DNA of 63,259 nucleotides, filler included, from Asterionella formosa (lineage: Eukaryota), in the NCBI GenBank assembly GCA_002256025.1. It is 7 parts of 7 records of this genome, joined end to end, with 100 filler letters (N's around TTAATTAATTAA, not from the genome) between each part and the next. Parts side by side here need not be neighbours in the genome. Positions count along the whole stretch, not along the records: positions 1 to 27,189 come from NKIB01001572.1; positions 27,290 to 54,450 come from NKIB01001578.1; positions 54,551 to 56,213 come from NKIB01001580.1; positions 56,314 to 57,976 come from NKIB01001581.1; positions 58,077 to 59,738 come from NKIB01001583.1; positions 59,839 to 61,499 come from NKIB01001585.1; positions 61,600 to 63,259 come from NKIB01001586.1. One strand, given 5' to 3'. Shown in pieces: positions 1 through 63,132 of the stretch (positions within the stretch are counted from its first letter, which is position 1; each line of letters starts with the position of its first letter). The notes beneath the pieces were generated by a model that was not told the DNA's origin, did no database searches, and saw only the letters and a program-made list of their open reading frames with translations. The position numbers and the translations under genes were made by a program.

Positions 1-2624
1 AACAAGACTAGATAGACTATTAACAGAAAGCTCACAATATTACAAAGTGTAAAGTGAAAATAAGTTTTCAGCTTTAGAGATCTTAAAAGTAAGATCTGTG
101 ATATTTCAACTAGACAATTTAACACCAGGACACCGCCCAGTAGTCTGCCACAATCAAAAGTGTCAATATGTGTCTCGGTATAGGCAGCATTATTTATAGA
201 ATATAGTTACTCGGCGTACATTTCGCCACCAGGAGGGTTAAAAGTCTGCAATGTCATAGTCTAACGGTAATCGTGAAAGATGACAATTTGGTCTTCCCTG
301 CAGCCAAGTACTGGTACATCGTGTTCAATTTCAGAAGGGGAAGCAGACTTCCGGCTCCTGTATTTATCGAAGTCGGATTGTGTCGTTGCTACAAGGTTTT
401 CCGTACAAGGACTATATTTTTACAGTTGTTACGGACAATGGATGATAAAGAAAGAGCTACGTACCTATTTAGCTCCTTGGAATCGTTTTCACACTTCGTT
501 CTGGATGTTTCAATTAAAATAACCCTTAAAGGACATTCAGGCGACATTTCAAACATCGACAAATCGAGCATTCGAACCACGTCACATGTAGTATTAGAAA
601 TCCACATACACCATCAATCAAAGCAAGATCAAGAAGAAGGATCAGACATTTTGCGCTTTGACACCACGACACAGCCGACCTTGTTCGCGGTAGTGAAACC
701 TTTGTAAAAGCCGGTCTTTTGTTTTATAGGGCATTCTATTGAAATGATGCTATAATCAAAGCAAAATTCAAAAAGCCTATAAAGCGTCCCCAAAACATTG
801 CAACCCAGAGACAGTACTTCAAACATTATTCAATGCGAAATAGACAAGTCACTACATAACATTCCAATTTGCAGTTACAAAATAACACAACATTGTCGAT
901 GCTCTACTTGTTACTAAGTCGTCCACATTTTGGAAGACTACCATTCTTGTACCTTCACTTTGGGTGTCTAGTATTTCCATATTGCCCCTGCATGTCATCT
1001 TGCTCGGCCAGTATGGATACATTAGCGTGACCTTGTCGCAAGTGATGTGTTCCAATCCTCTCACCCCCTACAGACTCCTCGACCTCCTAGGAATGTTGAT
1101 TTTCGCCCGCTTGTGGATTATTGATTACAACTAGTACTACTGGAGGGTGTCTGCAAGGGTCATCTGATGACACACACATTAAGAAACCTCATGGTGTCGG
1201 CCGCCTTTGGCTTGCTTCTCCAAGTCGGTGATATTGATACATTGAAGATGTGATCGCGTTTACTTCTTCCATGACTGATTTTCGAGCGTTGTGTGTGAAA
1301 GGGAAGATTGCTGTGTGGGCAATAGCTAGTGGCTGAAATTGAGACATACATCCATCATTTACATCATATTCTCCATGATTTCTGCGGTGTCCTCTATTAG
1401 GGTTGAAACTATTGCTGATAGAATCTCTTACGCAGCGTAATAATCCTGTAGATTCCCTTGCATCTAGAGTAATTTCATTTGCAAAGTAGATATCGCTGAT
1501 TGCATTTCACTTCTTACAATTCATGTTGATTCTGCTGGAGTTATTTCCAATAAAGCTTCTTGCAACTTCATCAAGGATGGTGTCTGTTGCTGCACCAGCT
1601 CTTGCTTGATTAGTGTACATGTATGATATATGTTGCTGGAGAAGATCAGGGCTATCACTACTCCCAGAATAAAAATACTGAGGGTCATATAACTAATGGA
1701 GGTTTGACAACTTAAATAAGTTGTTACTTGCTAGTTTTGGACGAAAATTGATACTTCGAGCTGAGGATAACAAGTCATTACCGATCTTGCTTCAATGGGG
1801 ATAACATCCTATTATTCAATCATCGATGGATGCCATCCTACTAATAACAAAGAAACACTTACAGCATATGATGGGATTCAAATATTTAATTAGTTAATCA
1901 TTTTTAATTGCACATTATTACTACTAGTCTGATTCTAAATTCATCTTCATTGCTCCACGGCCCATATAAGATGGGGTGGTGGAATTCAGTGGTCACTCTC
2001 TTGTCCTAGTATGAGAGTTTCAAATAAAAATTGTTGGTATCATTGATTGGATATCCTCTTATTTGAGACCTTTTTTTATGTCACCCTGTATACTTCACTG
2101 GTAACTGTGTTTGCCTTTGTAAATCTTTGTTTAACCGAAGTTCTTGACTTGATAGTTGGCTCTATAGAAGTCCACCACTGTTCCACTTGGAATGGTGATC
2201 CTATTGGTAGGATCATAGGACATTGAAGGGTAGCACTTGTTCATGTATGTCATCAGTGTTTGCATTGTTAATAGTAGCATGTTGCTTCCAATGTTGTATT
2301 GTTGATTCATGTAGCTAGTAAATAATGTGTTTGGCCAGAATCCAGTGCCCACAAGAAAGTGACAACTCTGCCATCACCAATGAAAATATAGTCCAAACAA
2401 CAGAAAGCCTGATGTCATTTGTTTTGTGGTTTGGTTTCCAATTGGCACTATGATTCCAATGGACCCATCAGTTGTGATGTTGTACTGTACCAATGCGAAC
2501 AATAACAAACCAAAAGAGTCACAAACGTAAACACATTTCATGTCTTTGTATTTGTGAACATGATGCTGACATGGTAGCAGTTACCAGGTACCATTTTGGT
2601 ACCTGGTAACTTGGAGGACCAGAG

Positions 2625-2711
2625 AAAGTTGCGTTGATTTGCTGGAACTAAAGGTTTAGCTTTCTTTATTCAATATCAAATTGTTTATTTAAGCAAAACG
2701 ACCGCAACTTG
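2625..2711. mobile_element. 87-bp mini TIR element (MITE-like), copy A, inverted relative to copy B
   Basis: Aligns over its full length to the reverse complement of 2944-3030; ends in ACCGCAACTTG. Confidence 0.65.
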
Positions 2712-2943
2712 CACGTAATGCAGTCGTTCGTAGATTTCCGGTACCTGCTGCATTGCTGCTGTGCCGGCGGGCGGAGGAGATCGAAATGATAATTTGAATC
2801 TGATAGCGCTATGTAGTCACCATACCTGGTACCAGGTACCCAGGTACCTGGTACAGTACGAACAGGTACCATCAGGGGTTCCAACACCCGGTAGGGGTAG
2901 GGTTTACCAGGTACCTACCGGTACCCGGTACCTGTAGTACCAG

Positions 2944-3030
2944 CAAGTTGCGGTCCTTTTGCATAAATCAACAATTTCATCTGGGAGAAAGAAAGCTAAA
3001 TCTTACGTTGAGCAAATCTACCGAAACTTG
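2944..3030. mobile_element. 87-bp mini TIR element (MITE-like), copy B
   Basis: Termini CAAGTTGCGGT...ACCGAAACTTG form an 11-bp TIR with 1 mismatch; a degenerate relative lies at about 60900-60981. Confidence 0.7.
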
Positions 3031-3720
3031 ACAGGTACCGGTTATACCGGTATGTACTAGTACCGATATATTTATGTATTGGTAAATTGTGCGTTTGTGC
3101 GAACGCGACGTGAAAACGGTATTACAACAAGAAATGCAGTAATTCGACTTCCATTTTGTCCACCATTCGTCATGCCTTACGTCGGATACGACAAACGAAC
3201 TTGAATTGTCCTGGTACACAATCGACTGGAACGTTCTAAAGCTAGGATGGGAGTATCGATAAGAGAGTCATAAGTCGTGTGTGGTACATTGTCGACTTTG
3301 CACAAAGCTCCAGTAGCTTGTTCATTTCCGATGTCACTGTACATATTATGGAAAACCCTCCGAAAGGGGCAATACGTATGGAAATATAGGCATTCTATTC
3401 TACCCATCGAATTTTGCAATGATTATCGTGACTCACTCCTGCATGCTTGCTGGCGTTTGTCTGAAATGACTGTTTTGCTTTCCTACATAAGTGAACTGCT
3501 GACTGCTTGATTACCTCCACACACTTGTCGTACAAGAAGACATGCTTCGTTCTTGATGAATTTGTACGGCCAAGAACTATGCATAGGACAAACCAATAAA
3601 ATAGCCACCTGGCCTAAAAAGCACACATGAATACCGGTAGGCCCCACAGTAGAGTACTGGGAAACGAATAAATCACGGATAATTCCAACGAAGCGACACG
3701 AACATAAGTCTCTCATTAGA

Positions 3721-5256
3721 ATGAACCATCTTTCATTGCTATCAGAACAGAGTGTCAACAAGAATCAGGTTGTTGGAGGAGCCAGAGCAAGCGCACTGGG
3801 ATCACCAATGCATTGTGAGCATCCGTTGGGAGCCTCTGAGAAATCAATTACTGAAATCATGTCCGATGCGTCGGTCGACACGGGGTTGCAACTTGACGAG
3901 GACCGGGAAAAAGGTGATGATGGAAACTCATCACTCAACGATGATGAGATGCTAAGCGGTAGTAGTTCGGCAAAGAAAAAACGCCGCCCCCGAAATGCAG
4001 ACGACGTGCCGATGAGTTTTCCTCAAAAGGTGCGTCGGTTAGGAAGCAGTGAGACATTTGTGTTGTGCCACTACGTTTGTCAGCCCGTAAATTCTCATAT
4101 AACTGACTGCATGCCATTGCATGACAGTATATCATTACTAACTCAAATTTGTTTTTCTCTTTTTCTTTTCTTGCGATGACGTTAATGTCATTAACAGTTA
4201 ATGGATATTCTTTCCAACGATGGGAATGCAGATATCGCCTCGTGGTTGCCAAATGGGAAGGGATTTATGATCCACCAAAAGAAGCGCTTCGCTGTTGAAA
4301 TTTTGCCGAAGTATTTTAAGGAAGCCAAGTTTACTAGTTTCACGCGCAAACTGAACCGATGGAACTTTACCCGAATCACTCGCGGGACGGAGACGGGGGC
4401 ATATTACCATGAGTACTTTCAGCGAGGCAACCTTCGCTTGTGCATGCAAATGTGTTGCCAAAACGCGAAGAGTATTGCTGTTACGAAAGAACTTCAGCCT
4501 ACTACTACCATGTCCAAGTTGAAACAGAGTCCGCAGATTGATTTATGTCCTTCAAATGATAGTCATTTGCTGGGATTTGGAATGGGAGTTGGAGGAACAA
4601 ACTTAATCTACCCAGGTCCCATAGTAAACCATGGTAGTCAGCCGTTTGCCGCCGAGCACATGTACAAACTGCGCCAACTGGAACATCAACGCCAAGAACT
4701 TATGATGCAGCAGCAACAACACGAATCAGACATGATGCACGCAAATCAATTGGCGAGTCTGTCACTTTCACGTTCTCGTCAACAGAACCTACTTTCGCCA
4801 CTTGCCAATTCGAACGAGGGACCTTCCCTTCACCAAGACGCCTTCAAAAACAGCATGATCCAGAGAAGCAACACAAGTGCTTACCTTGCCATGATTATGT
4901 CACAAGAAAAGCTTAACAATCAGGTTGGATCTTTTGGTGGTTTCAACAACATTTCGCCTCTCGACGTTCAGCGCCAACAAGCAAATCTCATACAGAGTCA
5001 GCAACAGCAAATGGATCAATACTCTCAGCAAAGGATGTACCAACATGCAAACATCCAGCAGCAGCAACATCAACTGAGTCAGCTGCAACTGCAGCTGCAA
5101 CTGCAACTCCAGCAGCAGCAATTCCAGCAGCCGTTCCACTGTTTCAACCCGTCAACTACCGGTAGTGTGCTGAACATAAATCAGGAACCCCAAGAAGTGG
5201 ACAGCCCAACAAGTGAAACAGGGAAGCCCAACAAGAGGACTTCATCAGCCGCTTAA
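3721..5256 (+). CDS. Heat shock transcription factor (HSF DNA-binding domain, Gln-rich C-terminus); exons 3721-4029 and 4198-5256
   Basis: Removing the GT-AG intron 4030-4197 gives in-frame SFPQK|LMDILS..IASWLPNGKGFMI..FAVEILPKYFKEAKFTSFTRKLNRWNF, the HSF DBD signature; polyQ region follows. Confidence 0.93.
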
Positions 5257-6007
5257 TGCTATGTTGAACATTGGGGTGACATGGAAATATGGGATTTTAA
5301 CTATAAAGAACAATCAGGCTCAAACAGGAAACGGAATGTTGTATTCAATCACGCCAAGCACTTTTTTCGCATTTTAATATCTACTCCTGATGTATTGGTT
5401 GAATGTTACCTACTAGAGGAAAAATTTAAGCTGAAATGTAAATTTTCCGGGAATCATGAGGAACAGTTCTCCAAGAAATTGAATGGATCAGCAATAGGGA
5501 TTCCAGTTCTCGTCAACGAATTCGCCAATCATACCAGTAGGCCCAAATGGATGGTATGATGCAGTTTCATCGCGCTGTTGGTAGTCGTAGAATATACTAC
5601 CGTTAATGATAAAGCTGCCTGTTGAAATGAATTTTAGCAATATCATACTCCAAGCACTTGACCTCACATTGCTCCGCAATATCCAATTAATACAAATATC
5701 TCGTTATTCGGTCGTGATCAGGACATTTCGATTTGCTTCAGTTCATATGGAAAATGTCAAATGGCAGATTAGTAAGGTTGGCTACGCCCCTAAGAAAAAT
5801 GAATTAAGGATTGGGTTGGTAAAGCGTGCATCTCTATTTCAACATGTCATAGGTTTCAGCAAAGTTACTATCACTTTCTGCACTATGAGTGGTTGGTAGA
5901 TTTTGCTTGCCCCCAAATGAGGATTATTTGCTAGATTATTCTTGTGTCAATAAATAAAGCATATTGGAAACGAACTAAATCAAATTTTCTCTCCATCTCT
6001 CCGTCCA

Positions 6008-7012
6008 CTAGTACTTCTTCTGAAAGAGCGCAGAAACCATTCGACTAGCGCAAACAGCGTGCTCTACCAATCCAACATGTCGAAGGTCCCGATTTGTCAA
6101 ATCAAACCCAAAGCGTTCCAATCGATTGAGAAACGTTTCGGAAGACAATCCCGGAAGTAATACCGCTACGGTATTGGCTCCGTCCTTTTTGTCTTGTATC
6201 AACTCGCTTCTCAATACTCGTGCATTAGCGAGGTTGGCTCTCGCCTCTTGCACGATATCCTTCACAGCACTTTGAAGGGCTTTTCGGCATTCTTGGTCTC
6301 CCATCCCCAATGAACTCATTAGGTAGCGAGGACTTTTCACGCCATACTTTAAGCACAATTCTTCCGGAACAATCAACTTGCCTGTAGTGGACATGACGGG
6401 GATGGAGAGGCGGAGAGCATTGGTCAGCCCGTGACATATTCCGACCAACCCAGCTGCCTGATGGGACACGGGGTTCGTGACATTGCCACTCTCCAGAACA
6501 AGCTGCGACAGTGATCCGCAAGAAAGTCCTGCATGATCCACCAGTGACTTCAGCGTGGGGTATTGCTTGAGATCTAAATCATTTTCACGGCCCTTGAGAA
6601 TGTCATCAAAGTGACACTTGGACAATTGATGCTTCGTCGTAATTTCTTTCAACAACTTGAATGTAGGATGTGTGCTCCACCCTTCGCCAAGCTCCTGACC
6701 AGAAAAAAGATGATTGATACCCTCTTGCCACCATTTCAAATGTTCTGATGGCGGTGCATTGGGTTTCACTTTGGCTGTGGTTCCAAAGCGGAGGCCTGTT
6801 TCGACCCAGAAGGAGCGAACCACGTAGTACGCATCTTGCATGTCTTGAGTGGGTAACAGTCGACCTGGTAAATATCCCGCTGGATCGTATGATTTTACCA
6901 TGTGAACAGCGTGTCCAAGATCTACCGACGTGGTGGATAACGCTCGCTTCGTCGTTGTGGATCGAACAACGCCCATCATTGTGCTGGGCACGAATGCTTT
7001 TGACAGGAACAT
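6008..7012 (-). CDS. NDUFAF6: Squalene/phytoene synthase-fold protein, NDUFAF6-like complex I assembly factor, probably mitochondrial
   Basis: 334-aa ORF. Arg/Ser/Thr-rich N-terminus (..TTTKRALSTT) resembles a mitochondrial presequence. Motifs VKSYDPAGYL, LKWWQEGI, HPT, GRENDL..YPTLKSLVDHA and GICHGLTNALR fit the NDUFAF6 pattern as I recall it. Confidence 0.75.
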   Translation of the reverse strand: MFLSKAFVPSTMMGVVRSTTTKRALSTTSVDLGHAVHMVKSYDPAGYLPGRLLPTQDMQDAYYVVRSFWVETGLRFGTTAKVKPNAPPSEHLKWWQEGINHLFSGQELGEGWSTHPTFKLLKEITTKHQLSKCHFDDILKGRENDLDLKQYPTLKSLVDHAGLSCGSLSQLVLESGNVTNPVSHQAAGLVGICHGLTNALRLSIPVMSTTGKLIVPEELCLKYGVKSPRYLMSSLGMGDQECRKALQSAVKDIVQEARANLANARVLRSELIQDKKDGANTVAVLLPGLSSETFLNRLERFGFDLTNRDLRHVGLVEHAVCASRMVSALFQKKY

Positions 7013-8062
7013 GGGATATGTTCACTGTTGCAAAACTTGCTTGTTTGTACTTTTTCTCGCTATCCGATTACTGTTTTCGTTTAATCGCTTCGTCCGTTTC
7101 TGTGTTGAAAGCCTCTCTTGTCTGTTAAGGAACAAGCAAACTAAGCCACAGCTTTCTGTCCTTTCGATTTCTGTCGAAAGCAGCAGGACCTTTTCTTGGA
7201 GGGAAATTTGCAAGTCGTGATCATATCCTACCACATCACTCTTTATTAGCTGACACCACCACGTATGTACTTACCAAAAGTAGTGTCTACCACCACGAAA
7301 GGAGGCAGTACACGAATTCCCAAACCGGTATTTCCAATTTATCATATACCGGTACATGCACAAATATACATACATCCGTTTTTAATATAAGTTATAGACT
7401 ACTCTGTTTTCCTCAATGAATGTACAGTAGCACGCACTAGTGAGAAGCATGCGGCGACCTTTGCATGTATGGTGGTCTTTTCATGTAGGCCGACATGGTA
7501 ACGGTACCTGATACCAGTAAGATATAACGATACACTCGTAACTCACGACTGCGACAACAAAGTACAAGGTACCTGGTACCTTGTAGACTACTGGTATTCA
7601 TTTTTCATATGTATGTACCGGTACCGGTTGTCGAAATGGACTCGTCGTCTTGATCGCTGACATTTTAAAACCCAGTCAACCAAACAAGCAAGTAACGGGT
7701 TCAACCAACGGTAGGTAATAAGACTACCTGGTACCTGGCACTCATGGAACAAAACTAGTACGACTCCAGCACATATTACTGTTATTGGCCTCTCAAAGAA
7801 TCTAATTCATATGCCCGTACCAGGTACCGGTATACACTTATTTAGCTATGCAACAACTACTACCCCCGGTACTGGGAACCCTTTCACTTTCAGAAAATGG
7901 GTGGCAAAGTACCGGTAAAATTGCAGGGAAATTCCCATGCAAAGCCGTAGCAAAATTGGATTTAACATTTTGATTCTTTTGGGAAGGGTTGTATTTTATT
8001 ATCAAGAAATATGAGCGGTCAAAAATCTTAAAATTGGCGAATGGTTACACAATGATGGCCAC

Positions 8063-9163
8063 TTAAAGCTCCTCGTCAGTGCTTGAAACATCCTCGTAAG
8101 TCATTTTGGTCAAATCTTGCTCGGATATCAAGCCTTTCAACTCTTCCACTTTGCCACCTGCCATGACTTTCCCATATCCAGGAGCTGGTCCTGAAAAGAC
8201 AATGGATTCTTGTAATCCACACCACCCATGCTGACATTCTGGTTCATCCAAGGAAGTTTCAATAACGTGCAACGTGGGAAATTCGCTTGGAATTTTTGTG
8301 TCCCAAGTGGGTGGAACGCGATAGTGCGTTTTCATAGTAATATCCGGATCCCAATCTACAGGGTACCAGTGCAAAAACAATGATGTATACCATTCTCCGT
8401 TGAATGGTCGAGGTCGGCCATGATAGCATTTTGATGATTCATATAAAAGAATATCTCCTGCCTCGAGATTCACTTCAACTGTATTTCCCTGAAAGTCTTC
8501 AATAACAAGTGGCCAGGGATCTCCCTTGTCATCATGGCCAACGTGCATGATAGCGGAAATAACGTGAGTTTCTACTTTGTCAATATGCATATTCAATGAG
8601 GACTCGTTCAAGTACACCCGCAGCCCGTATGCATTGTTACCAATTAGCTTGGTGCCACTCCAAGCTTCCATAATGGGCTTCAACATCTGAATGGATCGAT
8701 CCAATAAATTGGCGCTCACGTCAATAAAATTGGGATCCCCTTTGATGGAATCTGACGGTTCCTCCGCCCGCATGGTGCCTTGCTCCATGCCAGTATACAG
8801 AACCTCTTGTAGTTGCTGGAGTAAGGCCTCCGGAGCCGAAGTGAGGCCATAACCGAACTCAGTAAAGTTTGGACAGAAAATTCCTGAATGAATAGCACTC
8901 ATGTAACCATTGTAGCAATTTTCTTGGAGGTCGAGAGCGTCGATTTGACCCAGGCGTCGTTGGTACTGCTTCTTCCATCCTTCAGTTTGAGGAGTAAATT
9001 CATGGTCCGAAGGTGGCCAAGAATAGTTGCGTGCGTGGTATTTAGCGACGCGCTCGCTTTCGATAAGAGCCGCGTGCGTCACGAATGGAATGTATAGTAA
9101 TGGTAACAGGAGTGCACAACGATAGAAGCACGGGAGGTGCATGATTGCCGTTCCTTGGACCAT
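8063..9163 (-). CDS. Secreted/ER 2OG-Fe(II) oxygenase, prolyl-4-hydroxylase-like
   Basis: Hydrophobic signal peptide (ALLLPLLYIPFVTHA); YGLRVY..LNMHIDK (HxD), HVISAIMHV, LYESSKCYHGRP (distal His); C-terminus DEEL resembles an ER-retention signal. Confidence 0.75.
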   Translation of the reverse strand: MVQGTAIMHLPCFYRCALLLPLLYIPFVTHAALIESERVAKYHARNYSWPPSDHEFTPQTEGWKKQYQRRLGQIDALDLQENCYNGYMSAIHSGIFCPNFTEFGYGLTSAPEALLQQLQEVLYTGMEQGTMRAEEPSDSIKGDPNFIDVSANLLDRSIQMLKPIMEAWSGTKLIGNNAYGLRVYLNESSLNMHIDKVETHVISAIMHVGHDDKGDPWPLVIEDFQGNTVEVNLEAGDILLYESSKCYHGRPRPFNGEWYTSLFLHWYPVDWDPDITMKTHYRVPPTWDTKIPSEFPTLHVIETSLDEPECQHGWCGLQESIVFSGPAPGYGKVMAGGKVEELKGLISEQDLTKMTYEDVSSTDEEL

Positions 9164-10007
9164 GGTGGTTCGTTGTGAATGCGAACCTTGCTTTTTTGTG
9201 GTACACCTTATTCAAGTACCGGTAAGCTAGGTACTTCTCATTTATGTGCTCTCTTGCTTCGCCCTTCCGTTGCACTTTTTAAACTACCGGTACCGGTAGT
9301 AGACTACGGTTTTTAATTAGTCTCTGTTACATAAACATAGTAGACGTGTACATCCTGGCATTTAACAAATGTAATGTACGTATTCTTAGCCACGAACTGT
9401 ATCGCAACGACTGACTATCAGGCACCGGTACGTAACCAGGTCCTGGTACCTGGTACCAGGTCAATGTACCGCTACCTGGTACTCCACCAGGGTACCTGGT
9501 ACCTGGTTCAGTAGTGTGGTCGTATCGGCCGTCACTCGTCGAGCAAAGGTTCAACAGACAGGCTGTTTAGTACAGCTGTTGCAGTACCAGGTACCAGATC
9601 CTACTTTTCAAGCCTTGTTTACTGTTATACTATCAGCCGGCACGTAACTACCGATACCAAATGATACGAGCCCCTTTTAAGGTACATGGTACCAGGGTAC
9701 CGGTTGGATGCCATAAGCACATACCGGTACCAGGTAGTCCCGGTAAGACGTTACCAGTACCTGGTATACCAGGGTGATAGTTTGTCAATGTGACACTCCG
9801 GCTATACATACTTGTGAATCCAATCAATCTACCAGTACTACCGGTAGGTTGACACAAAGACTGCTTAATTTCAGTTTCTAAAATCAATGATCATTATCGG
9901 AACTGTTAAATCAAGGGTATAGAAACAATAAGCTTTTTCTTTTATATCATGCAGACGAGTAGTAAAGTGCAGTCTTATTACTGAAGCTTCGGGAGTTAGT
10001 AGACTAC

Positions 10008-11366
10008 TTACGCGGCCCAAGCACGGCCATTCCCAGATCCTGTTGGACGATAGTCATGCTGGTCCATAGATGATGGCACCATGAATGGATGAGTGTCCAA
10101 TATAGGCAACAACACTACGGGTTCCACGTCTATCATTCCGTTATCGAAATCCTTGGTTCCTCCCAAGGTTTGAATGTAAAACGAGTTCATTGGATCTTCC
10201 TTGGAATATTGTTGAGCAAACTGCTGTTTTTGATGGTGGTGCATCTGATGTTGATCCATATTTAGTTGTTGTTGATGCATCTGATGTTGATTCATATTCA
10301 GTTGTTGTTGATGCATTTGTAGGTATTCAGGAGTAGGCAGAGGGGTTGGCTGGGTAGGGTCGTCCATGAGAGACTCTTCATTGTCGTCGTTGGCAAATTG
10401 AACCCTCAGTAATTCCGCAGCATGAAGTTGCTGTTGCTGTTGGAATTGCAGTTGCTGAAGTTGTACTGTGAACGCAAAAGTGTGAGCAAGACATTCTTAA
10501 ACAAAGGAACCACAGGAATCCACACAGGCCATACATAAACTCACGTTGCTGAAATTGTAGATGCTGCAATTGCCGACGGATCATGTCTTGGCTCTGTTGG
10601 ACCAAATCAACAGCCGAGTGAGTCTGCGAAGAATAGTCATTCGAAACATTGATGCTTAACTGGTCGTCAAAGATCAAACTGCTTGTCGTCGGCTTCGTGG
10701 TCTGGCAACACATTTGCATACAGAGAAGAAAGTCCCCTCTTTGGAATAACTTATGATAATAAGCTCCAGTCTCTGGCCCTCTGGTAACACGGATGAAGCC
10801 CCACCTATTCAGCTTTCGAGTGAAGCTGGTATATTTGGACTGCTTAAAAAACTTTGGCAAAATGTCCGTCGCAAACTTCTTCTTTTTGTAAATGAGAAAC
10901 CCCTTTCCGTGTGGCAACCAAGAAATGATATCAGCGGCTTCATCACTTCCTAGGATTTCCATAAGCTGTTGATAGTTGAGTTGAAGTAAAAGTGCCACGA
11001 GTGAGCGCGGATAAAACTATTGTCGAACGACACGAGAATGTCGCAGGCGACTCGAAGCCAAAAATTGAACACTAGGCGCTTCCCCGAATCTTTGCAATCA
11101 CGACCGACCGCGGACCACCGTAGCGAGGAGCTTACCTTTTGAGGAAAGGACAAAGGAACCTCATCCTCCTTATCTCCCATTCGATAATCGGCCTCAATCT
11201 CCTGATGAGGGGCAAGGACTTCGTCAGAACTGAAAGGCGCCGAGTCAAGCAGAGAGCGCCACTGCTCCGTCTTCATCGATTCATCGTTGGAGATGGGAAG
11301 TCCAGTGTTAATTGATGAAAAGCAATCCATTGGAAGGAAACCGTGTTGAATTGAACTAACCAACAT
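10008..11366 (-). CDS. Second heat shock transcription factor; exons 11366-11136, 10965-10545 and 10465-10008
   Basis: GT-AG introns at 11135-10966 and 10544-10466 join three listed ORFs in frame: SFPQK|LMEILGS..ISWLPHGKGFLI..KYTSFTRKLNRWGF..FQQ(L)QLQQLQF..MDDPTQP..RAWAA*. Confidence 0.92.
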
Positions 11367-16375: not shown

Positions 16376-16682
16376 TGTTTTGCTTTTTCTTCCATTTGCT
16401 TCTCGTTCGTTTTGCTTAAAGTAGCAATTTCGCTTATTGTGATGTCATCATTTCAACGATGCTGCCATCACATTCCCCTACAACCTACATAATCATACTG
16501 TAGCTAACTATGATACTGAATACGCACCGGTAAACTTAGCTATACCGGTACCTGTTCTCAGTTAGTATGTCAGATGAAATAAACAATGTCTATTGCTTAT
16601 CTACAGACATTCCATATTATACGAATAGCTGTAGCCATTCATGCACAAGGTACCTGGTAGGATATGTACCGGTTCTGATATA

Positions 16683-17190
16683 TAATTATTTAGCAGAAAT
16701 ACTGCTATTCTTTTTTATATATAATACGCTATAGTGTAGTAGTACCGGTAGTTGTGTAGTTGCAAGCTTTTAGAGAAGCCTTCATCATCATGTCGTCGCA
16801 GCGTTGAACAGCTATGATGAAAATAGCGAATATCTCCACAAAAATGAGAACGATGCTTTCCTTTTAGATACATTTATCAAACACGACATAGATAGTACAA
16901 TTGTAAAAAAATAATCTTAATTGCACTAATATTGACAACAAATTTGAAGCCGCCGCTGGAAATTTTTTCATCTAATTTAGAGATGCGCAATCTTTAAACG
17001 ACGATGCTACGAGGAGATACAACACTTTTACAGTAACTACACAACAACAAATGAGACTACGACTACAGTATTAACATGAATAATCGAAGCAAAAGATGTG
17101 AAATAAGGCTATTATCTACTGAGAATTGATTGATTGCAAATGGGCAATTTGTATCTTTGTAGAAGCCAGCAAATGTGAAGCATTCGCTGG
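16683..17190. repeat. Old dispersed repeat, homologous to about 42244-42730
   Basis: Collinear shared blocks: AATTATTTAGC.GAAAT, GAAAATAGC..TGAGAACGA.GCTTTCC, TATCAAACAC..ATAGA, AATATTGACAAC, GAAGCAAAAGATGTGAA. Confidence 0.7.
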
Positions 17191-27189: not shown

Positions 27190-27289
27190 NNNNNNNNNNN
27201 NNNNNNNNNNNNNNNNNNNNNNNNNNNNNNNNNTTAATTAATTAANNNNNNNNNNNNNNNNNNNNNNNNNNNNNNNNNNNNNNNNNNNN
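27190..27289. other. Artificial contig spacer N44-TTAATTAATTAA-N44 (also 54451-54550, 56214-56313, 57977-58076, 59739-59838, 61500-61599)
   Basis: Six identical 100-nt blocks whose core places stop codons in all six frames. Confidence 0.97.
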
Positions 27290-52604: not shown

Positions 52605-54450
52605 GGGTAGTTCTTATCATTCCGAATTTGCTGTATCATTTCCGGGTTGCGGGCAAAAAGTGACGGTTGGTATCAAAACACGGTATCAGCAATGGTAACT
52701 TGATGGTATCAATTTTGTATCATTGATACAAAATTGATACCTTTTTTGCCCCCTCCAAAACGGTATCAGTGATACTGACGTTTTCACGCGGGTATCATTT
52801 CCGTTGTCACAAATAAAATAACCGAAAATAAGCCTGCAAGGCAAGGCACCAGTGATAATATTAATGGCATATACTATTCCTTCAATTTTATGCTGGCTGC
52901 ATACATCGTCCAAGCAACACCATTGATACAATTATACAGCACCAGACAGAAACTTACTTGGCGATCTTATAACTCCCAAGTGTTTTTGAGAATTTGTTAC
53001 TACAGATCAGTCATTGGAATCTCCCTGAAGATACTACAAGCAAGGCAAATGGAACCGCATATGGAACCAGTCACACAAACGCAAACAACAACTGTTGATG
53101 TGGAGACCACTGTATATCAAGATCGACCCACCACCTTCAACAATACAATGCAGTCTCGTGCTACAGATACTGAAGTCGATCGATTTGTTGACTCCCTCAT
53201 ACTTCCTGATGACTTTGTGCTTGATAGTGAAAGGACAAAGGTGATTTTCATCAAAGGTGATTTTCATCAAAGGTGTTGCAATTAAGCAGATCTTGGTCAA
53301 GGTTCTCCGAAAAATTTGCGTCAGATACAAAGTTTCTGGATACAAAAATGCGAAGAAGGCTTTCACTGTTGCTTTGATTGCTCGACTTTTGAAGAGAGAC
53401 AGCTTGTCACAGAGGATATACCCTAGATCTTTCAATGTCAATGAATCAGACATTGAATTGGATAGTGATAATGATAATCACGAACATTCATCAATTAATG
53501 ATGAGGAATTCAAAGTCGATGAAGATTGCGAAGATGATAATGGTGAAAGGAACGACAAAGTTTAAGAGGCAACAGCAGTGCAGCCACATGAGTCTTTGGT
53601 CGATCCTCAGTTTGAACAAGAGGAAGTGAACCCTCCTGTAAAAAAGGCGAAAAATAATAAGGCACAGGCAAAGTCAACCCCTCCAGATGCTGTGACCTGC
53701 ATCAACACATACTTCCGTGTCATTAATGTCTACATGTGCGACAAGCATCGCAGTGATGTTTTGCGTCTAGGTCAGCCACAAGCTCTGCCTGGCTCAACTT
53801 GATGCAAGAATATTTCGACAAGAGTTCATTTTCGATCGACTTGTTGTCACATATAATGATGATGAGGATGACGACTGCATCATTCTAGCATTTCCCGAAG
53901 ATGAATACTGGGACCAAGTTGGAATTGATGCTGATTACGCAAAAAATATGATGTCCTCACTTCCAAAGACTTTTCATTGGTAATGGGATACATTAATCAT
54001 CATTGTCAAGTTGCCTATCGAAAAAACAAACAATCAGGCAATCATAATGATTTTGTCAAATTTGTTGGGCCACGTCATTTCCTATATTACTACCATCTTT
54101 GGTTGTGTCAAGTTCCACATCTATTGAATTTTGCTGTACCACTGTTACCAAAATATGCCTTCCGTGAGAGTATAGACATTGACGATACTGCCACCACATT
54201 GTCATCAAAATCAAATCTTCAAGCAATTTCAGTGTTAGAAAGAAGGGAAGACATGCAATCTTGACGCAAAAACCTACATCATCTTCTCAAAATCTTGCAA
54301 GTGCATTGGAATCATTTGAGAAGTCAAATGTTGCAAAACTCAGACTGCTAGAGTCTACAACTGCACCACGCAGAGAAAATGATCTACTGGATGTCTTGGA
54401 TAAGTATAAGGTCCGACTAAGAGTTGCGCGGGAGGAACTGGAAGAACTCG
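52605..54450 (+). mobile_element. End of a probable PIF/Harbinger-type DNA transposon with a pseudogenised accessory ORF (about 53049-54450)
   Basis: Terminus GGGTAGTTCTTATC preceded by TAA; the first ~220 bp match 60341-60563 in inverse orientation. The ORF is broken by a 16-bp tandem duplication at about 53240-53272, stops and frameshifts. Confidence 0.6.
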
Positions 54451-55929
54451 NNNNNNNNNNNNNNNNNNNNNNNNNNNNNNNNNNNNNNNNNNNNTTAATT
54501 AATTAANNNNNNNNNNNNNNNNNNNNNNNNNNNNNNNNNNNNNNNNNNNNGAGACTTTTTCAAGATAATTTACAGATTAACTCACTGGGGGAACTACTTT
54601 TGAATATATTATGATAGCATCAATAGCAATTTTTTTCTTGTTACCTATATGACAACCACCAATTTCAGGTCACCAGAAGGTATTATGATATAAGATAGTA
54701 TCAATATCTTCGAAAGGACAACATTTCTATTACCTGATTACATTATGTCTTGTATGATTAACCATGCTAAGCATAGCCCTATCTTGATAATTTATAATCA
54801 TCAAGTAAACCTAGGAGGGCCCAATTTTCGCGTACGGGCGCATTGCTCGCATTGTTCTTGATCAGTATACTGTACGTAATATTTACCAGTATCAGTATAC
54901 CAGTATACTGTTGGATTGGAATAAAGTAACTGTAATAATAACTGGTGGGACTCCCCAATACCATACTGCCTCACGTTAGTAGAAGTATAACTGGTATACT
55001 GCTGGAAGCCAAAAAATGGCTCGCAGTTAACTGCAGTATAAAATCACCGACCTATGGTTCCAAGTACATCGTTGTTAGCACTCACGCATGTACCTAATCT
55101 GGTGGCTGCGCCGGTATGGTTCGTACGGCGCATGTATGGAGCATCATATGCAGATATTAACAATTCGTTCTTGAAACTTCGATAGAATTCGTCTAGCGAA
55201 GGATGATGCAAGCAGCATGATAACTGTACCTGGTACTCCTACCTGGTACACTATCTTACCGGTCCGTATCGTAGTTTCATTTATGCTGTGTGGTGAACTG
55301 AGTATTTTCCTTGTACCCTGTGGTATTGAGAACCGGTATGTGCAGTAGCCATTATACAAGCAAATTCTAATTAGCGTTGGGGAAGAGTGTTTCCTTGAGC
55401 CGAACACGTCACCTAACAACAAGATGTGACACTGATTCATTCCTACATGCCATACTGTACCTCTGTATCTTGTATACCGCCAGGATTTAAAAATAAAGAA
55501 ACGGAATGTATTCCTGACAATCATTACAATTTACAGGTATAAATAAGCATTGGACAAAAAGAATTTTGATGTGAAACACATAATTGACTTGACTTTGATG
55601 ATCACGTCCGTTTCTGCCATGATCCTTCCTTCCTGTGTAAGACATGCAGTCTAGTCAAGGTACAAATATGATCATTTTGATCGAAGTAATGAACTGATTG
55701 CAGACGGATAAACAACACTTCCCCTTTTCAAGTTGACAAGCGAAAAAATGACGAACAAGTTGTGTATAAGTTTCATTCTAGCGTGTATGCCGCGGTCCCT
55801 TTCTTTTCTACCTGCACCTACATAATCTGATGTGTAGCGTTTAAAGAAAAGTATTGACTATACTAAAAAGCCTACTTTCAGTATTGGCACTTATGCCATG
55901 GCTGACCTAACTCAAGTCATGAAGGCTAC

Positions 55930-56213: not shown

Positions 56214-56313
56214 NNNNNNNNNNNNNNNNNNNNNNNNNNNNNNNNNNNNNNNNNNNNTTAATTAATTAANNNNNNNNNNNNNNNNNNNNNNNNNNNNNNN
56301 NNNNNNNNNNNNN

Positions 56314-57976: not shown

Positions 57977-59110
57977 NNNNNNNNNNNNNNNNNNNNNNNN
58001 NNNNNNNNNNNNNNNNNNNNTTAATTAATTAANNNNNNNNNNNNNNNNNNNNNNNNNNNNNNNNNNNNNNNNNNNNGCATCTTTGATACCATCAAGAGAG
58101 CGAAAGCAAGTGGCTCTTTTCATTGTTGTTTGCTCGTAGGAAGAATTTGATATCTGTATCGTCATTTGCTTGTTGGAATTGTCCGTTGCCTCAAACCTGC
58201 TTGGCGTGTGCGTACACACAGCCACTGTCGACTTGTTTTCATTGGAATGTGGTTCTTGTATTCACTGTTAAACTTGTCCGTATCTTTGTTACCATCAATA
58301 GAGCGACGCAGATGAAGTGGGTCTCTTCATTGTTGTTTGCTCCTGAAAAAGTCGGTGTCCATGTCCGTGTCATCCTCATCAATAGAGAGACAAGTTCTTT
58401 CGTTGGAAAAATTGGTACTCGTGGTATCATCATTCGCTCGTTGGAACCACTGTCCGTTGCCTCAAACCTGATTAGCGTCTGAGTACCGGTATGTGCACTG
58501 TCGACTTTAGTACATTACAGGCGGAGTGACTTTGCTACTAAATTGCGTGATATAATAATATACCCTGTAGCACAATGCAGAATACAGTTGCTTCCCAATC
58601 ATCTCATCATGATTGATAAGATGATACTGTGATATCATGATAAGGTTACATCGATGCATACATCACCAAAGTATGATACGTAATATTGAATAAAGTACAT
58701 CACATAGCTATGATACATTGATCCTAAAACTATGATGATTTTATAGAATGTTTATGATATAATTTTGATCAAAATATGATCATGCAAAAATAATACAATG
58801 ACAATAAAATACGATAAAATATGTACGCAAGTGTTACCAAGACATCATAGAATATAAATCAAGCAATCATAAAGTATGTTAATTAATATATGTGTTTGTC
58901 ATTTAATGTATACAGTTAAAGTCAACAGTTAGCTAATATGATAGTATTATACAGTGGATAGGATCTAAGTATATGGATGCATTGATAGGTACATCACTAT
59001 AATATGATTTGTGACATGATGGATTGATGCATATCACATACCGGTATCCTCAACAACCAGCCATCACGTTCATTGTTGTGTCGTCTTTCCTTTTTTTAGC
59101 TATATATATG

Positions 59111-59314
59111 CTCAGATCCGTTCCATTGCAAATCTTCTTTCAATAGGTCAAACTCGTCATCCTTGAGCATTTGCCTTCCAGTGGCATCGTAGGACTGAAG
59201 CGCGTCCAGAAAGATACGCTCCTTTTAGGCTACTGTGAGACGAATGAGTTCCCCACTTTCCGGATCAACGACACAGTATCCCTTGTCAGGACTAGTTTCG
59301 TTTTTGCTTGATTT
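59111..59314 (-). pseudogene. Fragment of a PGRL1-like (PGR5-like protein 1) gene with an in-frame stop
   Basis: Translates KGYCVVDPESGELIRLTVA*KERIFLDALQSYDATGRQMLKDDEFDLLKEDLQWNGSE, matching the PGRL1 motif (FLxALQxxY..EFDxLKExLxWxGS); TAA at 59227-59225. Confidence 0.7.
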
Positions 59315-60340
59315 CTATGGGGAAAGATGGAAGTAAGAATTTTTTTTACTCATAAATAGTTACTAATAAAATGGTTATTTGTTTTTAATCAAGTACAGCC
59401 ATTTGCAAATAACCGCACGCTGGTGTCGTTTCTTTTGCTCCATCGACCGAGTCGGACAGAAGTGTCATGTTTATGACAAGTCTCTTCGTTCCAACCACTC
59501 CTCATATTCGAAACCCGTTTGATTCGTCGTTGTGGCAAGTTTTGTTGTGTTGCGCAGGAAGTCACAAATAGGCGGGAGACATCCATCGACCAAGTCGGAC
59601 AGAAGTGTCAGGTCAGTTCTTGTCACATCTCTTCATTCCAACTCCTCTTATTAGAAACTGTTTGATACGGCGGGATACAACCTTCCTCGCTGTTTCCCAA
59701 GTCCAATGGTACCACCAGAATGCAGCAAAGTTTTCTTCNNNNNNNNNNNNNNNNNNNNNNNNNNNNNNNNNNNNNNNNNNNNTTAATTAATTAANNNNNN
59801 NNNNNNNNNNNNNNNNNNNNNNNNNNNNNNNNNNNNNNCGGCTACTCGATTTAAACCGAAAAAATCCATTCTCCACAAAAATAAAAATAAAATTGTATCA
59901 TCAAAAAGTATCACGACAATTCAACGGTTACGGGCTGGCTACAAACATATGCTTTTCCTTCCAGACTACCTGTATATAATGGTACCAAACCAGTCCTCAA
60001 ACCATGCAAGAAATCTACGCGAATTATGTATATGGACTACTATAGTCAATGGTATTTGCACAGGTATTTGTTGTAGTCAGGTGATCATTTTCGTATTCTA
60101 TTGCCTAGTACGTGCTGGACGAGTGATAGTAGAATGTACCGGTAGTGACAGCCAAAGCCAAAGTATTTAATCTGTTCAATTCTCGACTCAGTGGTTGTTG
60201 TTCTTTGGTGTTGTGGCTGAACATTGCCACACACGGCCGCTATAATGATTGTATGGTTCTTCTTTGATACACACCATAATAATTTTTGTATATTTTATGT
60301 AGATGTAAGGAAAAGTACTGCCCTGCAGGAGGCGTATTAT

Positions 60341-60563
60341 CGGTTATTTTATTAGTGACAACGGAAATGATACCCGCATGAAAACGTCAGTATCACTGAT
60401 ACCGTTTTTGGAGGGGGCAAAAAAAGGTATCAATTTTGTATCAATGATACAAAATTTGATACCATCAAGTTACCGTTGCTGATACCGTGTTTTGATACCA
60501 ACCGTCACTTTTTGCCCGCAACCCGGAAATGATACAGCAAATTCGGAATGATAAGAACGACCC
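60341..60563 (-). mobile_element. Transposon end matching 52605-52824 in inverse orientation
   Basis: Near-identical reverse complement over about 220 bp, ending ATAAGAACGACCC; rich in GATAC/GTATC. Confidence 0.8.
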
Positions 60564-63132
60564 AAAGATACCGGTACGATAGTTGACAATTGCCCATTCA
60601 CACATGATACTTACGTACTTTGCATCGAAGTGCATAAACACAGATTCCATCAAGACAACTACTACTACATATGTAAAATGCCACGAGAAAACAGCTACAA
60701 GAAAAAAACGGCCGTTTGTCCGGTATTTCTCTCAAATGATCAAACTTCACTCCAAGTTCAACATAGTAGTACTAGAAAAACCGTGTTAAATTATGAAATG
60801 GGAATGAACGGAAGTTCAGACTTCGGCTGAAAAACTGGCCTACTGTTTTCTACGAAAATCAGCGTAAGTGTCCGGTAGATGTCTGATGATGAATACCAGC
60901 AAAGGGCGGTAATTTTGCTGAACTAAGGATTTTTTTAATCCCATATCGAATTGTTTTTTTTTTAATGACCGCATCTCTTTGTTGTACCTTCAACCAGCAG
61001 TCATTTTCCTGAAACGGACAACATGTTACCGGACATCGACATATTTTATAACGTATAAAGAACATCTTCTATTCATAGCACGATTCAGCGAAATAAATTT
61101 TTCTAATTGAAAAAACGAGAACAGCATATGACTATGACATTCAGGAAGCATTATGACTTTCAGGAAACATTATGACTTTCAGGAAATTCCTATAAATTTC
61201 AGGAAATGACAGGAATTTGTGAGGCATCATCATTGAATCTTGTTGTCTTCGATTAAGCTACCAGGTACTAGGTACATAATTATGCCATCACTACATAAAG
61301 CAATGTAGAGATAGTAATAACGTTTAAATATCATTTTTGTTTGTTTAAAATGGAACTCTATCAATCTGGCGCCGATTCCTATTTAATTCAAATATTCAAA
61401 TGGACACTCGAATCATGGGAATTCATAGTAGTAGGAAACTCCCTGTTCCACGCCGTTTTTACAACCCTAGCGATATTTTCTCCACACTAGGGTTAAGCCN
61501 NNNNNNNNNNNNNNNNNNNNNNNNNNNNNNNNNNNNNNNNNNNTTAATTAATTAANNNNNNNNNNNNNNNNNNNNNNNNNNNNNNNNNNNNNNNNNNNNT
61601 CGTCGTGTTTGAGGACATGATCAGGCGGAGGCGGACTACGGACAAACAATCCAGCAAATAATGCTCCACCGAATCCAGAAATCGTCCCAGTATTATACCT
61701 CCTCCATGGACTCAGTGCATCTTCTCGTTCCGTTCGCAGGGGAGGAGGAGCTACATCGGTATCTTCTGAATCAGATGCACCGGAGTCATGAAAAATATGT
61801 GGTTCGGATTCAGATGAATCATGCCTGAATTTTGAAAAAATGATGAGTAAGTTGTATGCTTGTAATTATTGGCGCATCATGGGTCCTATTCGTTGGTTCC
61901 AAGTTGCGAGACATTCATCATCCATATACCTTCTACATATGATAGATTATGCTGGGGTGCTGCATCTGCTGAATCCTTTAACGCATCCATGCATTTAATG
62001 TCACTCACATAATACTTTGCCCGGATTCTCCGCTCATGATCCTTTTTGGCCAATCTGACGAGAAATCACCAAAAGGGGTCCAGTTCCAGGGTGATTCGCC
62101 TTCCCGATTATTCGCCATGTTGGTGATCCCTGATAGGGCACTCACTGTACGAGTTTCAACGAAAGAAACTCGAATGAAATCGCCCAAATTGCTAAGAAAT
62201 TTTCTGCCCACTCCAGCGAGTTGCTATTCAATGTATGAACGATCGATGGATGCTCGTATTGTTGTGCAAATCGTTTTCTAGGGCCAGGCATCGGCCATTG
62301 AGAGTGATCAATTCAGGTGTACCTCTGCCTATACCTCTTGCTTCTATATTATCTTCATTTAATATACGATACCTCGGTAGATAAATGAAGAATTAAAAAG
62401 CAAAGCATAGATTACAAATTATATACCGGTATCATATTGAAAACTGTTTGACGAGTTGTCCCTGCAAGTTTGCATGGACATAACGATCAGATGTCCCCTT
62501 ATTATTATAGCTATCAGAGTTTATAAGATTAATCACAATACGTATTATTTGAAATTTAAATTCTTCAATAATGGATATCTTGTAATGTAGTTGATGTGGC
62601 TACGAGCGTTGAATTCGAATGGCATCCTATCATAGCATTATGTAAAGCTAAATTTATATACCCGCGTATTTCATGATTAAATTCTGTGGGAATTATTTTT
62701 GTTGTGCGTGACCAGTCCCCGTTAGTTCGCCTTGTATGTAGTACAGGACACACATTTTTCTTCCTACGATCTACACAGATACCAGTATTGGTCTAATCTT
62801 TCTGCATTTCAAAGATGCCAGTGAACCAAAATTGTCGATTCGCTCGACAAGAAAAATAATCCAACCAACGACGACACGGAACATGTAACAACACCTCAGT
62901 ACACCTGTAGTTGTAATAGAGAAGATCAATTCATGGAAAGGGGTTCTCGTTATAAATTCTCCGTTTCCTATATACTAGTCAGTATATCACTTGATGATGT
63001 AGTGATATATATAAGAGATTGAGTCTTAAATGGAAGGTAATGAAAACTAGAAATTTCCAGAATTTTACAGATTGTAGAAGGATCCAAGGTTGTGTAGAAC
63101 TCAAGTGACAAACTGTGTGAAAGGTCAAGAAG

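Follow-up and report, generated by a model that had tools for sequence, protein, structure and literature searches.

A palindromic word iterated singly and in short in-register runs in the non-coding DNA of the diatom Asterionella formosa and of a second diatom

Highly iterated palindromes are known from cyanobacteria, and their origin is a long-standing open question. HIP1 (GCGATCGC) is an exact 8-bp palindrome, dispersed with unrelated flanks and far above its Markov expectation, which is found both within and between genes and builds no in-register runs. The REP/BIME repeats of bacteria are short hairpin-forming palindromes scattered between genes; REPs are imperfect hairpins of about 20–40 bp that a dedicated transposase is believed to mobilise in prokaryotes. 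Homotypic binding-site arrays and unstable promoter tandem repeats lie in promoter-side spacers and vary in copy number between strains, and some repressor operator arrays have a heptad period. A further kind of short word is left behind by transposons. According to one account, the footprint of Sleeping Beauty is TACAGTA or TACTGTA, with the element's three terminal base pairs between two TAs, and Tc1/mariner footprints retain the first or last 2–4 bases of the element (PMC6943129); another describes mariner and Stowaway footprints as retaining the target-site duplications together with element ends (PMC4561436). Here we describe the word TACC(W)GGTA (W, A or T), iterated in 63,259 bases of DNA (41% G+C; hereafter the window) from the diatom Asterionella formosa (assembly GCA_002256025.1). 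In the non-coding DNA of this diatom the word is about 100 times commoner than chance, either singly or in short runs placed head to tail. It is a genuine feature of the genome, found in two diatoms at least and with polymorphism by whole units, and we tentatively prefer to read the units as whole-unit insertions at TA of the transposon-footprint kind. No description of the motif was found in our literature searches, the coverage of which stopped short of subscription papers and genome-paper supplements.

Under an order-1 Markov model, 0.39 copies of the 8-mer TACCGGTA are expected in the window and 42 are present, while the 9-mers TACCTGGTA and TACCAGGTA occur 22 and 16 times (0.16 expected for each). 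In 100 dinucleotide-preserving shuffles the mean count was 0.42 for TACCGGTA and 0.32 for TACCWGGTA, of which there are 38 real copies; the largest count was 3 for either word, and none of the 100 shuffles matched the real count of either. GGTACC and ACCGGT are each found 65 times (7.5 and 7.7 expected). Since palindromes in general are only 1.1–1.5-fold in excess in the window, the effect is specific to the TACC(W)GGTA word. A first-pass annotation of this DNA had staked the motif on an excess over a Markov background, which is thus strong; all the clusters that it listed were found where it had placed them, and so was the run GGTACCTGGTACCTGGTACCAGGTAC that it quoted, at 27057–27082. It had also drawn the motif as one feature over 2579..61275. 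Units do occur across that span, but it is not a continuous stretch, as it crosses six artificial joins, across which adjacency has no meaning; 62 of the 80 units lie in the contig at 1–27189. The window consists of seven contigs of 27189, 27161, 1663, 1663, 1662, 1661 and 1660 bases, the last of them truncated where the window ends, which hold, in this order, 62, 10, 2, 0, 2, 3 and 1 units (80 in total, or about 1.3 per kb). Each of the six double runs of N between them reads N44-TTAATTAATTAA-N44, a linker with stops in all six frames.

The unit is TA-CC-(W)-GG-TA, built of the half-sites TACC and GGTA, and adjoining units have one TA in common. In the window, the start of GGTA follows that of TACC at an offset of 4 (n=42) or 5 (n=39) and hardly ever at any other, and the extra central base at offset 5 is T in 22 cases, A in 16 and C in one. 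TA stands on both sides of all 80 units, as it does in Tc1/mariner footprints. Because of the common TA, runs have periods of 6 and 7 bp and GGTACC arises as a by-product at the joint (GGTA to TACC at offset 2, n=65). TACC follows TACC at offset 7 in 25 cases and at offset 6 in 12, against 1–6 at adjacent offsets; the 7-bp periodicity reported earlier is therefore genuine, with a 6-bp period beside it. On one side or both, GGTACC runs on into CC(W) or (W)GG in 53 of its 65 occurrences, and the 12 without continuation are near the chance expectation. ACCGGT is preceded by T in 53 of 65 cases, followed by A in 49, and both in 42.

The 69 arrays of the window comprise 60 single units, eight arrays of two units and one of four, the longest; Tandem Repeats Finder reported no array at its default score. 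Five of the 11 neighbouring unit pairs in the window mix a 6-bp with a 7-bp unit. Central W pairs among 180 neighbouring 7-bp units are AA 54, AT 47, TT 48 and TA 31, so that W is equal in 102, against 90.1 if independent (chi-square 3.15). 8-mers and 9-mers show only mild segregation, with 33 like neighbours where 25.8 are expected (P about 0.03). At about 21% of array ends there is an additional GG or CC, compared with 7.7% before any TA. The motif thus lacks the head-to-tail runs of like units typical of a microsatellite, although it does vary in length by multiples of the unit. The insertion of a duplicated 7–8 bp palindromic target, suggested in the first-pass annotation, predicts equal neighbouring W and does not agree with these counts; a TA target with CC(W)GG between fits better.

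The bases flanking the units are not conserved, save for a preference for G just outside the unit (44% in the window, 62% in the second diatom described below). When ten cluster regions were compared at low stringency, they had only motif runs in common, and a single repeat family was rejected as a candidate. For external comparison we used assembled contigs of sequencing runs, of which X1, X5, X6 and X8 are four runs from four studies. Placed along the window, contigs of these runs reach very high depth at the arrays and their loose ends agree only to about 0.4, and so the same motif runs occur at many places with differing neighbours. The unrelated flanks and the motif-only similarity of the clusters rule out one ordinary repeat family, an explanation that had been named as fatal to the motif. 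Part of window positions 2500–12400 was found in 20 of the 24 listed runs, from 16 studies and mostly freshwater metagenomes. Contigs of X1 are identical to the window, arrays included, over 2788–3441 and 8825–10038 (0 differences), and a separate metagenome contig, L079, matches 26734–27189. With contigs of four runs and a metagenome contig carrying them, the motif arrays are not an artefact of one assembly.

The units avoid coding DNA. Gene models here are crude open reading frame (ORF) calls, and ORFs with a Pfam or Atlas match, 17.8 kb in all, were counted as supported. Supported ORFs hold two of the 80 units (at 5157 and 40778; about 0.11 per kb), as against 78 units in the 44.9 kb elsewhere (about 1.7 per kb), a contrast of about 15-fold, which confirms that the motif is scarce in coding sequences, as previously noted; ORFs of at least 150 aa hold five units in 21 kb. 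By ORF-based class, the window has 2.75 units per kb in tandem spacers, 1.80 in divergent and 0.25 in convergent ones. A dead Ty3 element of roughly 5 kb contains only one unit. The motif also lies within decayed repeats, as had been claimed: units 13933, 15119, 16543, 16651 and 16743 are inside a high-copy repeat. Three of the 21 repeat pairs of the window were aligned, two of which cover one pair of copies (14.1–16.4 kb and 27.6–29.7 kb). Unit 15119 is common to the paralogue at 28534 and thus predates that duplication, and in the repeat pair 52605/60330 unit 60569 lies just outside the repeat, so that alignment of old repeats was uninformative on 7-bp insertions. Like HIP1, the motif is an exact palindrome, dispersed among unrelated flanks and far above a Markov background. 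Unlike HIP1, it keeps away from coding DNA, comes with two spacings, builds 6/7-bp runs, varies by whole-unit insertions and deletions (indels) and resides in a eukaryotic nucleus. Of the HIP-like system proposed earlier, the iterated and dispersed palindrome stands, but the analogy is a loose one.

The arrays differ between strains. In about 450 aligned bases, the window and L079 differ by four substitutions and one indel. The indel is 20 bp extra in the window, CCGGTA+CCTGGTA+CCTGGTA (6+7+7), three units of two kinds: the window reads TA-CCGG-TA-CCTGG-TA-CCTGG-TA-CCAGG-TA where L079 reads TA-CCAGG-TA. Across motif-rich spacers, eight contig pieces of X5, X6 and X8 contain 6, 7, 7, 8, 8, 13, 13 and 14 gap letters, and four pieces of mostly coding DNA contain one each. 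Contigs over 2683–3024 (X5) and 2683–3436 (X8) are shorter than the window by 7 and 14 bases and one over 20099–20744 (X6) by 6, while an X6 contig over 6671–7878 is longer by 7 bases and X6 and X8 contigs at the 9217–9846 spacer by 6. Taken together, the length differences of contigs across motif-rich spacers are 6, 7, 13 or 14 bases. Units seem to be gained and lost as wholes. The near-independence of W and the mixing of 6- and 7-bp units argue against simple slippage, which would copy a unit together with its W. As the four-unit allele cannot be obtained from the one-unit allele by copying, and point mutation cannot build in-register runs, units seem to be added one at a time, beside or away from existing units. 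The excess of one-off variants indicates that perfect units are made and then decay: alongside the 42 intact 8-mers of the window are 18 CpG transitions (1.5 expected) and 40 other one-off variants (10.9 expected), and alongside the 38 intact 9-mers are 23 one-off variants (9.3 expected). The active generating process postulated in the first-pass annotation is supported to the extent that units come and go as wholes (one allele differs by exactly three), which is neither chance nor the work of one repeat family; its mechanism is what we infer below.

A scan of metagenome contigs for TACCWGGTACCWGGTACC gave at least 128 stretches, and 60 loci of at least 2 kb, some of them overlapping, were examined. 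Among the matches listed, 35 of the 41 loci at G+C 0.40–0.47 have further units away from the ascertained array, compared with three of the 19 other loci, one unit each; many of these other loci have an ORF cover of at least 0.9 and are bacteria-like. The motif, although it resembles REP/BIME repeats in being a short palindrome scattered between genes, is thus not dispersed in the bacteria-like contigs that match the search pattern. The rich loci have 44–46% G+C, long ORFs and spacers of 1–2 kb with up to 26 units; their domain matches are eukaryotic, and the best named homologues of one helicase, at 55–60% identity, are all from diatoms. This second diatom has the same dispersed motif, with the CpG form mostly decayed. 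In 206 kb (25 loci) its ORFs hold 0.03 units per kb (3 in 110.8 kb). A subset of 191 kb (23 loci) contains 243 intact 9-mers, with 119 one-off variants (28.9 expected), and 17 intact 8-mers, with 105 CpG-transition forms (TACTGGTA and TACCAGTA; 4.9 expected) and 47 other one-off variants (36.6 expected). The ratio of intact 8-mers to CpG transitions is therefore 42:18 in the window and 17:105 in the second diatom. CG methylation spans about 1% to 59% among diatoms in a review (PMC9861306), and differences of this kind would explain the unlike CpG decay.

Offsets from GTAC to GTAC in the second diatom peak at 7, 14 and 21 (295, 128 and 78), which shows that the register persists across decayed units. 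With ascertained and other regions summed, units are present in 10 of 11 divergent, 16 of 39 tandem and three of 13 convergent spacers; without the ascertained regions, the densities are 0.77 (tandem), 1.47 (divergent) and 0.74 (convergent) units per kb on the ORF-call gene models. Other words are enriched in the same spacers. TAGTAGTA (179 copies) and TACTACTA (171) are about 70-fold over order-1 Markov expectation, and, against order-2 expectation, TACTAGTA (114) and CTAGCTAG (51) are about 16-fold, TACTCGAGTA (13) about 33-fold and CTACTAGTAG (43) about 95-fold in excess. Such other TA-bounded words pack the spacers of L012, L021, L024, L029, L034, L037, L057 and other loci of 44–46% G+C, and the window has little of them. 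They may represent several scar types or a broader, hairpin-driven process. Stowaway-type ends (TA+CTCCCTCC), used as a control for TACTCGAGTA, gave only single matches inside ORFs, at chance level.

On the reading that we tentatively prefer, a TA would be turned into TA-CCGG-TA, with a gain of 6 bp, or into TA-CC(A/T)GG-TA, with a gain of 7 bp. A new event at either TA of a unit would extend the run in register to (GGTACC[W])n with a period of 6 or 7, creating GGTACC. The source may be a TA-targeting IS630-Tc1-mariner-type cut-and-paste transposon, with ends that start CC... and finish ...GG, upon the excision of which the duplicated TA and a few terminal bases of the element would remain. 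Near-palindromic overhangs could pair with a central A:A or T:T mismatch, repair of which in either direction would give W. Events would fall mostly in promoter-side spacers, and units would later decay by point mutation, fastest at CpG, while runs would shorten through deletion between repeats. An element with CC...GG ends inserting at TA would account for the two TAs, for W and, through re-use of the TA of a scar, for the 6- and 7-bp periods. It would account also for the truncated GG or CC at array ends and for unit 11938 within a (TA)n run, where four substitutions would be needed without insertion. The preponderance of single units, the unconserved flanks and the near-independence of neighbours likewise count for insertion at TA, and the 11 neighbouring units of the window are of about the order expected from random re-use of TA in non-coding DNA (3–7 in a rough estimate).

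The units resemble Tc1/mariner footprints, as described in the two accounts, in having TA on each side of a few fixed inner bases, an ambiguous central A/T in a palindromic word, and the nature of small insertions in non-coding DNA (PMC6943129, PMC4561436). Unlike the Sleeping Beauty footprint, with three inner bases, the diatom unit has CCGG or CCWGG (4–5), and unlike known footprints it reaches the density given above, forms runs and has no element with matching ends and no transposase in the sample searched. To our knowledge, one kind of footprint at such density is reported from no genome. Mariner-like elements have reportedly been found in a diatom by Nguyen et al. in 2014, to judge from a reference-list entry.

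Several results weigh against insertion by excision. In the window and the loci at G+C 0.38–0.47 (less than 0.5 Mb), we found no TA|CC...GG|TA element with an inverted repeat extending beyond the motif. Both arms of all 171 matches of a search anchored on TACC were motif-type sequence (170 paired motif with motif, and one was a degenerate pair), and a general search for TA-flanked inverted repeats returned low-complexity matches and a subterminal TA in the 59-bp inverted repeat of a Harbinger element in L063. The inserted bases were not the terminal bases of any resident element in this sample, although an element of low copy number is possible. The non-TA bases that follow TACCWGG have no common continuation. 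No Tc1/mariner transposase was seen in 66 ORFs of the window and 67 of related loci (133), the only DNA transposase being of the PIF/Harbinger type in L063, the ends of which are unlike the motif. No empty-site allele with a bare TA was seen in the one allele pair, the paralogue pairs or a BLAST search, which gave self-matches and low-complexity matches only; the L079 pair keeps one unit, and deletion between repeats explains it equally well. CCWGG implies five bases, or trimming, where 2–4 are usual for the superfamily, and the untrimmed 10-mer TACCATGGTA is absent from the window (0 copies) and occurs three times in 206 kb of the second diatom. Heterogeneity is frequent among real footprints, whereas two or three exact forms dominate here. 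The promoter-side location and the avoidance of coding DNA and of the dead Ty3 element fit selection for binding sites equally well. By our own estimate, which assumes a mutation rate, some 10^8 generations could suffice for an element of low copy number to produce this many scars, and not seeing the element in less than 0.5 Mb is therefore weak evidence.

A second possibility, doubtful but still to be reckoned with, is that an abundant protein with sequence specificity, for instance a promoter or insulator factor or some other site-specific enzyme, binds the units, which selection would keep in homotypic clusters within promoter-side spacers. Such a protein would read the CC:GG pairs and tolerate one extra central base. 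AgeI cleaves A^CCGGT and SexAI A^CCWGGT, and the central base is flipped out by CCGG-family nucleases; one protein fold able to read both spacings keeps recognition by a protein alive as an explanation. We know of no protein that binds TACC(W)GGTA. The very sharply defined, palindromic motif is what such sites would look like, and its persistence in two diatoms, the depletion in coding DNA, the apparent concentration in spacers with a 5' gene end in both and the single unit in the dead Ty3 element all speak for it. As in homotypic arrays and unstable promoter repeats, a palindromic site lies in promoter-side spacers, its copy number varies between strains, and the runs have a heptad period. 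Unlike such arrays, the units are fixed at all 8–9 positions, abut in exact register, mix types and are often decayed. Selection on point mutations cannot produce the exact 6/7-bp register, and slippage would copy W, which is near-independent although unit number shifts quickly between strains. The many decayed copies, above all the 17 intact 8-mers against 105 CpG transitions of the second diatom, point to weak constraint, units lie within the high-copy repeat, and the promoter-side bias is weak in the second diatom once ascertained regions are removed, on gene models that are crude ORF calls.

We consider it unlikely that the motif is a self-complementary short tandem repeat maintained without a dedicated enzyme, by slippage, by processing of hairpins or cruciforms and by switching of templates from strand to strand or from array to array. 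W would then be randomised when mismatches in hairpins are repaired, and single units would be remnants of contracted arrays. Such turnover agrees with the length polymorphism in whole units, with the 7-bp register that persists across decayed units, with the hairpin-like array pairs at 2582–2608 and 26998–27081, and with the other TA-bounded words (TAGTAGTA, TACTAGTA, CTAGCTAG) that fill the same spacers of the second diatom. It leaves unexplained how one 8/9-bp word is seeded at dozens of unrelated places per 63 kb, and it sits poorly with the 60 single units among 69 arrays, the absence of arrays in the Tandem Repeats Finder output and the mixing of 6- and 7-bp units in runs. Flank palindromy beyond the arrays (at least three matching bases) is at null level, with four arrays in the window against 2.0 in a re-pairing null and 24 at other loci against 20.0, and gives no sign of larger inverted duplications.

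A HIP1-like substitution bias, in which methylation of CCGG/CCWGG and biased mismatch repair slowly turn near-matches into the motif, is very improbable. The cores are classic cytosine-methylation sites, CpG transitions dominate 8-mer decay, and PMC9861306 reports, besides the range of CG methylation cited above, a bacterial-like DNA methyltransferase in Phaeodactylum tricornutum. Yet such a bias, which the first-pass annotation had also raised, predicts substitutions and leaves the 6/7-bp gains and losses unexplained; it predicts neither in-register runs nor avoidance of coding DNA, and the transitions seen destroy the motif instead of creating it. An assembly artefact, to which concatenated contigs with artificial linkers and short palindromic runs might lend themselves, or one ordinary dispersed repeat family can be set aside with near certainty, because contigs from four runs and four studies carry the arrays (two from X1 without any difference), a metagenome contig reproduces 26734–27189, and the motif is all that the clusters have in common.

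More speculatively, and with considerable reservation, we suggest that an enzyme system active in a diatom lineage might write whole CC(W)GGTA units into TA of open promoter DNA, with a preference for existing units, and so seed itself genome-wide. Candidates for the enzyme are a TA-targeting transposase, either domesticated or of low copy number, and a nuclease with ACC(W)GGT as its recognition site. Such a system would be a eukaryotic counterpart of HIP1, the scars of which reveal its mechanism, and would supply promoter variation steadily. Even apart from this, the motif is a comparable word in a eukaryote, with a grammar suggestive of insertion at TA, with polymorphism that persists between natural strains and with occurrence in two diatoms or more, which allows the gain and loss of units to be tracked directly in cultures, in populations and in mutation-accumulation lines. 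Should the units be transposon scars, they would record very many past excisions and would mean that footprints can reshape promoter DNA genome-wide; if they are binding sites, they would amount to a major promoter element of diatoms not described before. In both cases, a considerable part of gene-adjacent spacer DNA consists of them, and they are the main source of small indels there.

Table 1. Motif clusters, variable units and linkers in the window, with their surroundings
Position	Units	Setting
2582–2608	9-mers TACCAGGTACC and GGTACCTGGTA facing across ATTTT	Within a 33-bp inverted repeat
2823–2932	Dense cluster, five segments of 9-mers/8-mers with decayed units interspersed	Within a 404-bp degenerate inverted repeat (2626–3029), upstream of HSF ORFs 3631–5253 (+)
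3034–3052	GGTACCGGTTATACCGGTA, one decayed unit and one intact 8-mer	
7324–7917	7347, 7570, 7616, 7725, 7818–7832, 7910; 23-bp palindrome TACAAGGTACCTGGTACCTTGTA	Spacer, SQS_PSY ORF (6011–7021, −) to ORF 8066–9211 (−)
9217–9846	11 units, including TACCGGTACCGGTA (9285–9298) and GGTACCTGGTACCAGGT (9445–9461)	Spacer, ORF 8066–9211 (−) to HSF ORFs 10011–11459 (−)
11509–12557	Single units 11509, 11938; mixed pairs TACCTGGTACCGGT (12203) and TACCAGGTACCGGTA (12543)	Unit 11938 in the middle of a (TA)n run, ATATATATA-CCGG-TATATATAT
13382–16750	13382, 13933, 15119, 16543, 16651, 16743	High-copy repeat
19798–20927	Cluster with TACCAGGTACCTGGTACCGG (20532–20551) and GGTACTGGTACCAGGTACC (20909–20927); cluster span 20532–20927	Upstream of fatty-acid desaturase ORF (first ATG about 20940, +)
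26150–26732	Seven single TACCGGTA units, 46–141 bp apart: 26194, 26267, 26313, 26454, 26531, 26643, 26723; cluster span 26150–26320	Flanks all different
26998–27081	Two arrays; central bases left T, T, truncated 8-mer; right -, T, T, A	Around a 34-bp spacer
About 27053–27072	First three units of the right array, 20 bp	Absent from L079
36763–36775	GGTACCAGGTACC	About 50 bp past the 5' end of GT61 ORF (33855–36716, −)
48176–48722	48211, 48373, 48712; cluster span 48176–48219	3' of DUF5880 ORF (48949–50094, −)
50336–51320	50336, 50893–50906 (20-bp palindrome ATATACCGGTACCGGTATAT), 51312	5' of DUF5880 ORF
55227–55263	TACCTGGTACTCCTACCTGGTACACTATCTTACCGGT	Separate 1663-bp contig
58484–62431	Single units 58484, 59039, 60137, 60569, 61259, 62424	Three further contigs, about 1.66 kb each
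27190–27289, 54451–54550, 56214–56313, 57977–58076, 59739–59838, 61500–61599		Linkers

The ORFs of the window match HSF (twice), SQS_PSY, fatty-acid desaturase, LRR, Pex2/12, PP5 and GT61, as well as a Ty3-like reverse transcriptase and integrase, ribosomal protein S9/S16, the small subunit of ribonucleotide reductase and DUF5880. The closest Atlas clusters of ORF 8066–9163 come from Bacillariophyta; relatives of its protein, sought among metagenome contigs for orthologous loci, were not found there. The unit at 23282–23292, which the first-pass annotation had placed in the tail of the LRR gene, lies beside the LRR ORF at 23583–24416 and might fall in that tail.

Around the dense cluster upstream of the first HSF ORFs, the outer arms of the inverted repeat (2626–2712 and 2943–3029) are 82% complementary, and units also flank it. 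Left of 26734, L079 (1–36, reverse strand) and the window (26700–26733) are unrelated, with homology stopping at a common GGTACC; this junction at a motif unit is either a structural difference or an assembly break. The L063 locus of the second diatom contains, at the edge of a motif-rich spacer, a PIF/Harbinger-type element (1847–4904) with 59-bp terminal inverted repeats (1847–1905 and 4846–4904), an apparent 3-bp duplication ACT, and ORFs matching DDE_Tnp_4 (3409–4734, −) and DUF6818 (2136–3350, +). L026 and L063, which are 80% alike, are paralogous genes and not alleles, and L033/L043 belong to another organism with a local duplication.

The high-copy repeat (12460–17770 and 27614–29718) has no recognisable protein domain, a depth of 25–450 times single-copy in run X1 and 33-bp tandem repeats at 15804–15967 and 29222–29358; its second copy in the window is 84–89% identical. 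The Ty3-like element at 37618–41700 is a decayed long terminal repeat retrotransposon with broken reverse transcriptase, RNase H and integrase frames and an internal duplication (40117–40499 against 41050–41425). A 234-bp repeat at 52605–52835 and 60330–60563, 96% identical and in inverted orientation, has many GGTATCA words, contains a palindrome and is possibly a small mobile element; one copy has TACCGGTA 6 bp past its end. The word TTAATTAA was dropped as a second iterated palindrome, 12 of its 16 copies in the window being artificial linkers. The 1663-base contig at 56314–57976, which has zero motif units, consists of one long ORF with a non-LTR-type reverse transcriptase (recognised by eye) and has 56% G+C compared with about 41% elsewhere; it may come from another organism or be a recent arrival. 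At 63133–63259, a perfect 25-bp tandem repeat (GGTGGATCTTGTAGGGATCCAAGGT, 5.1 copies) continues past the window end.

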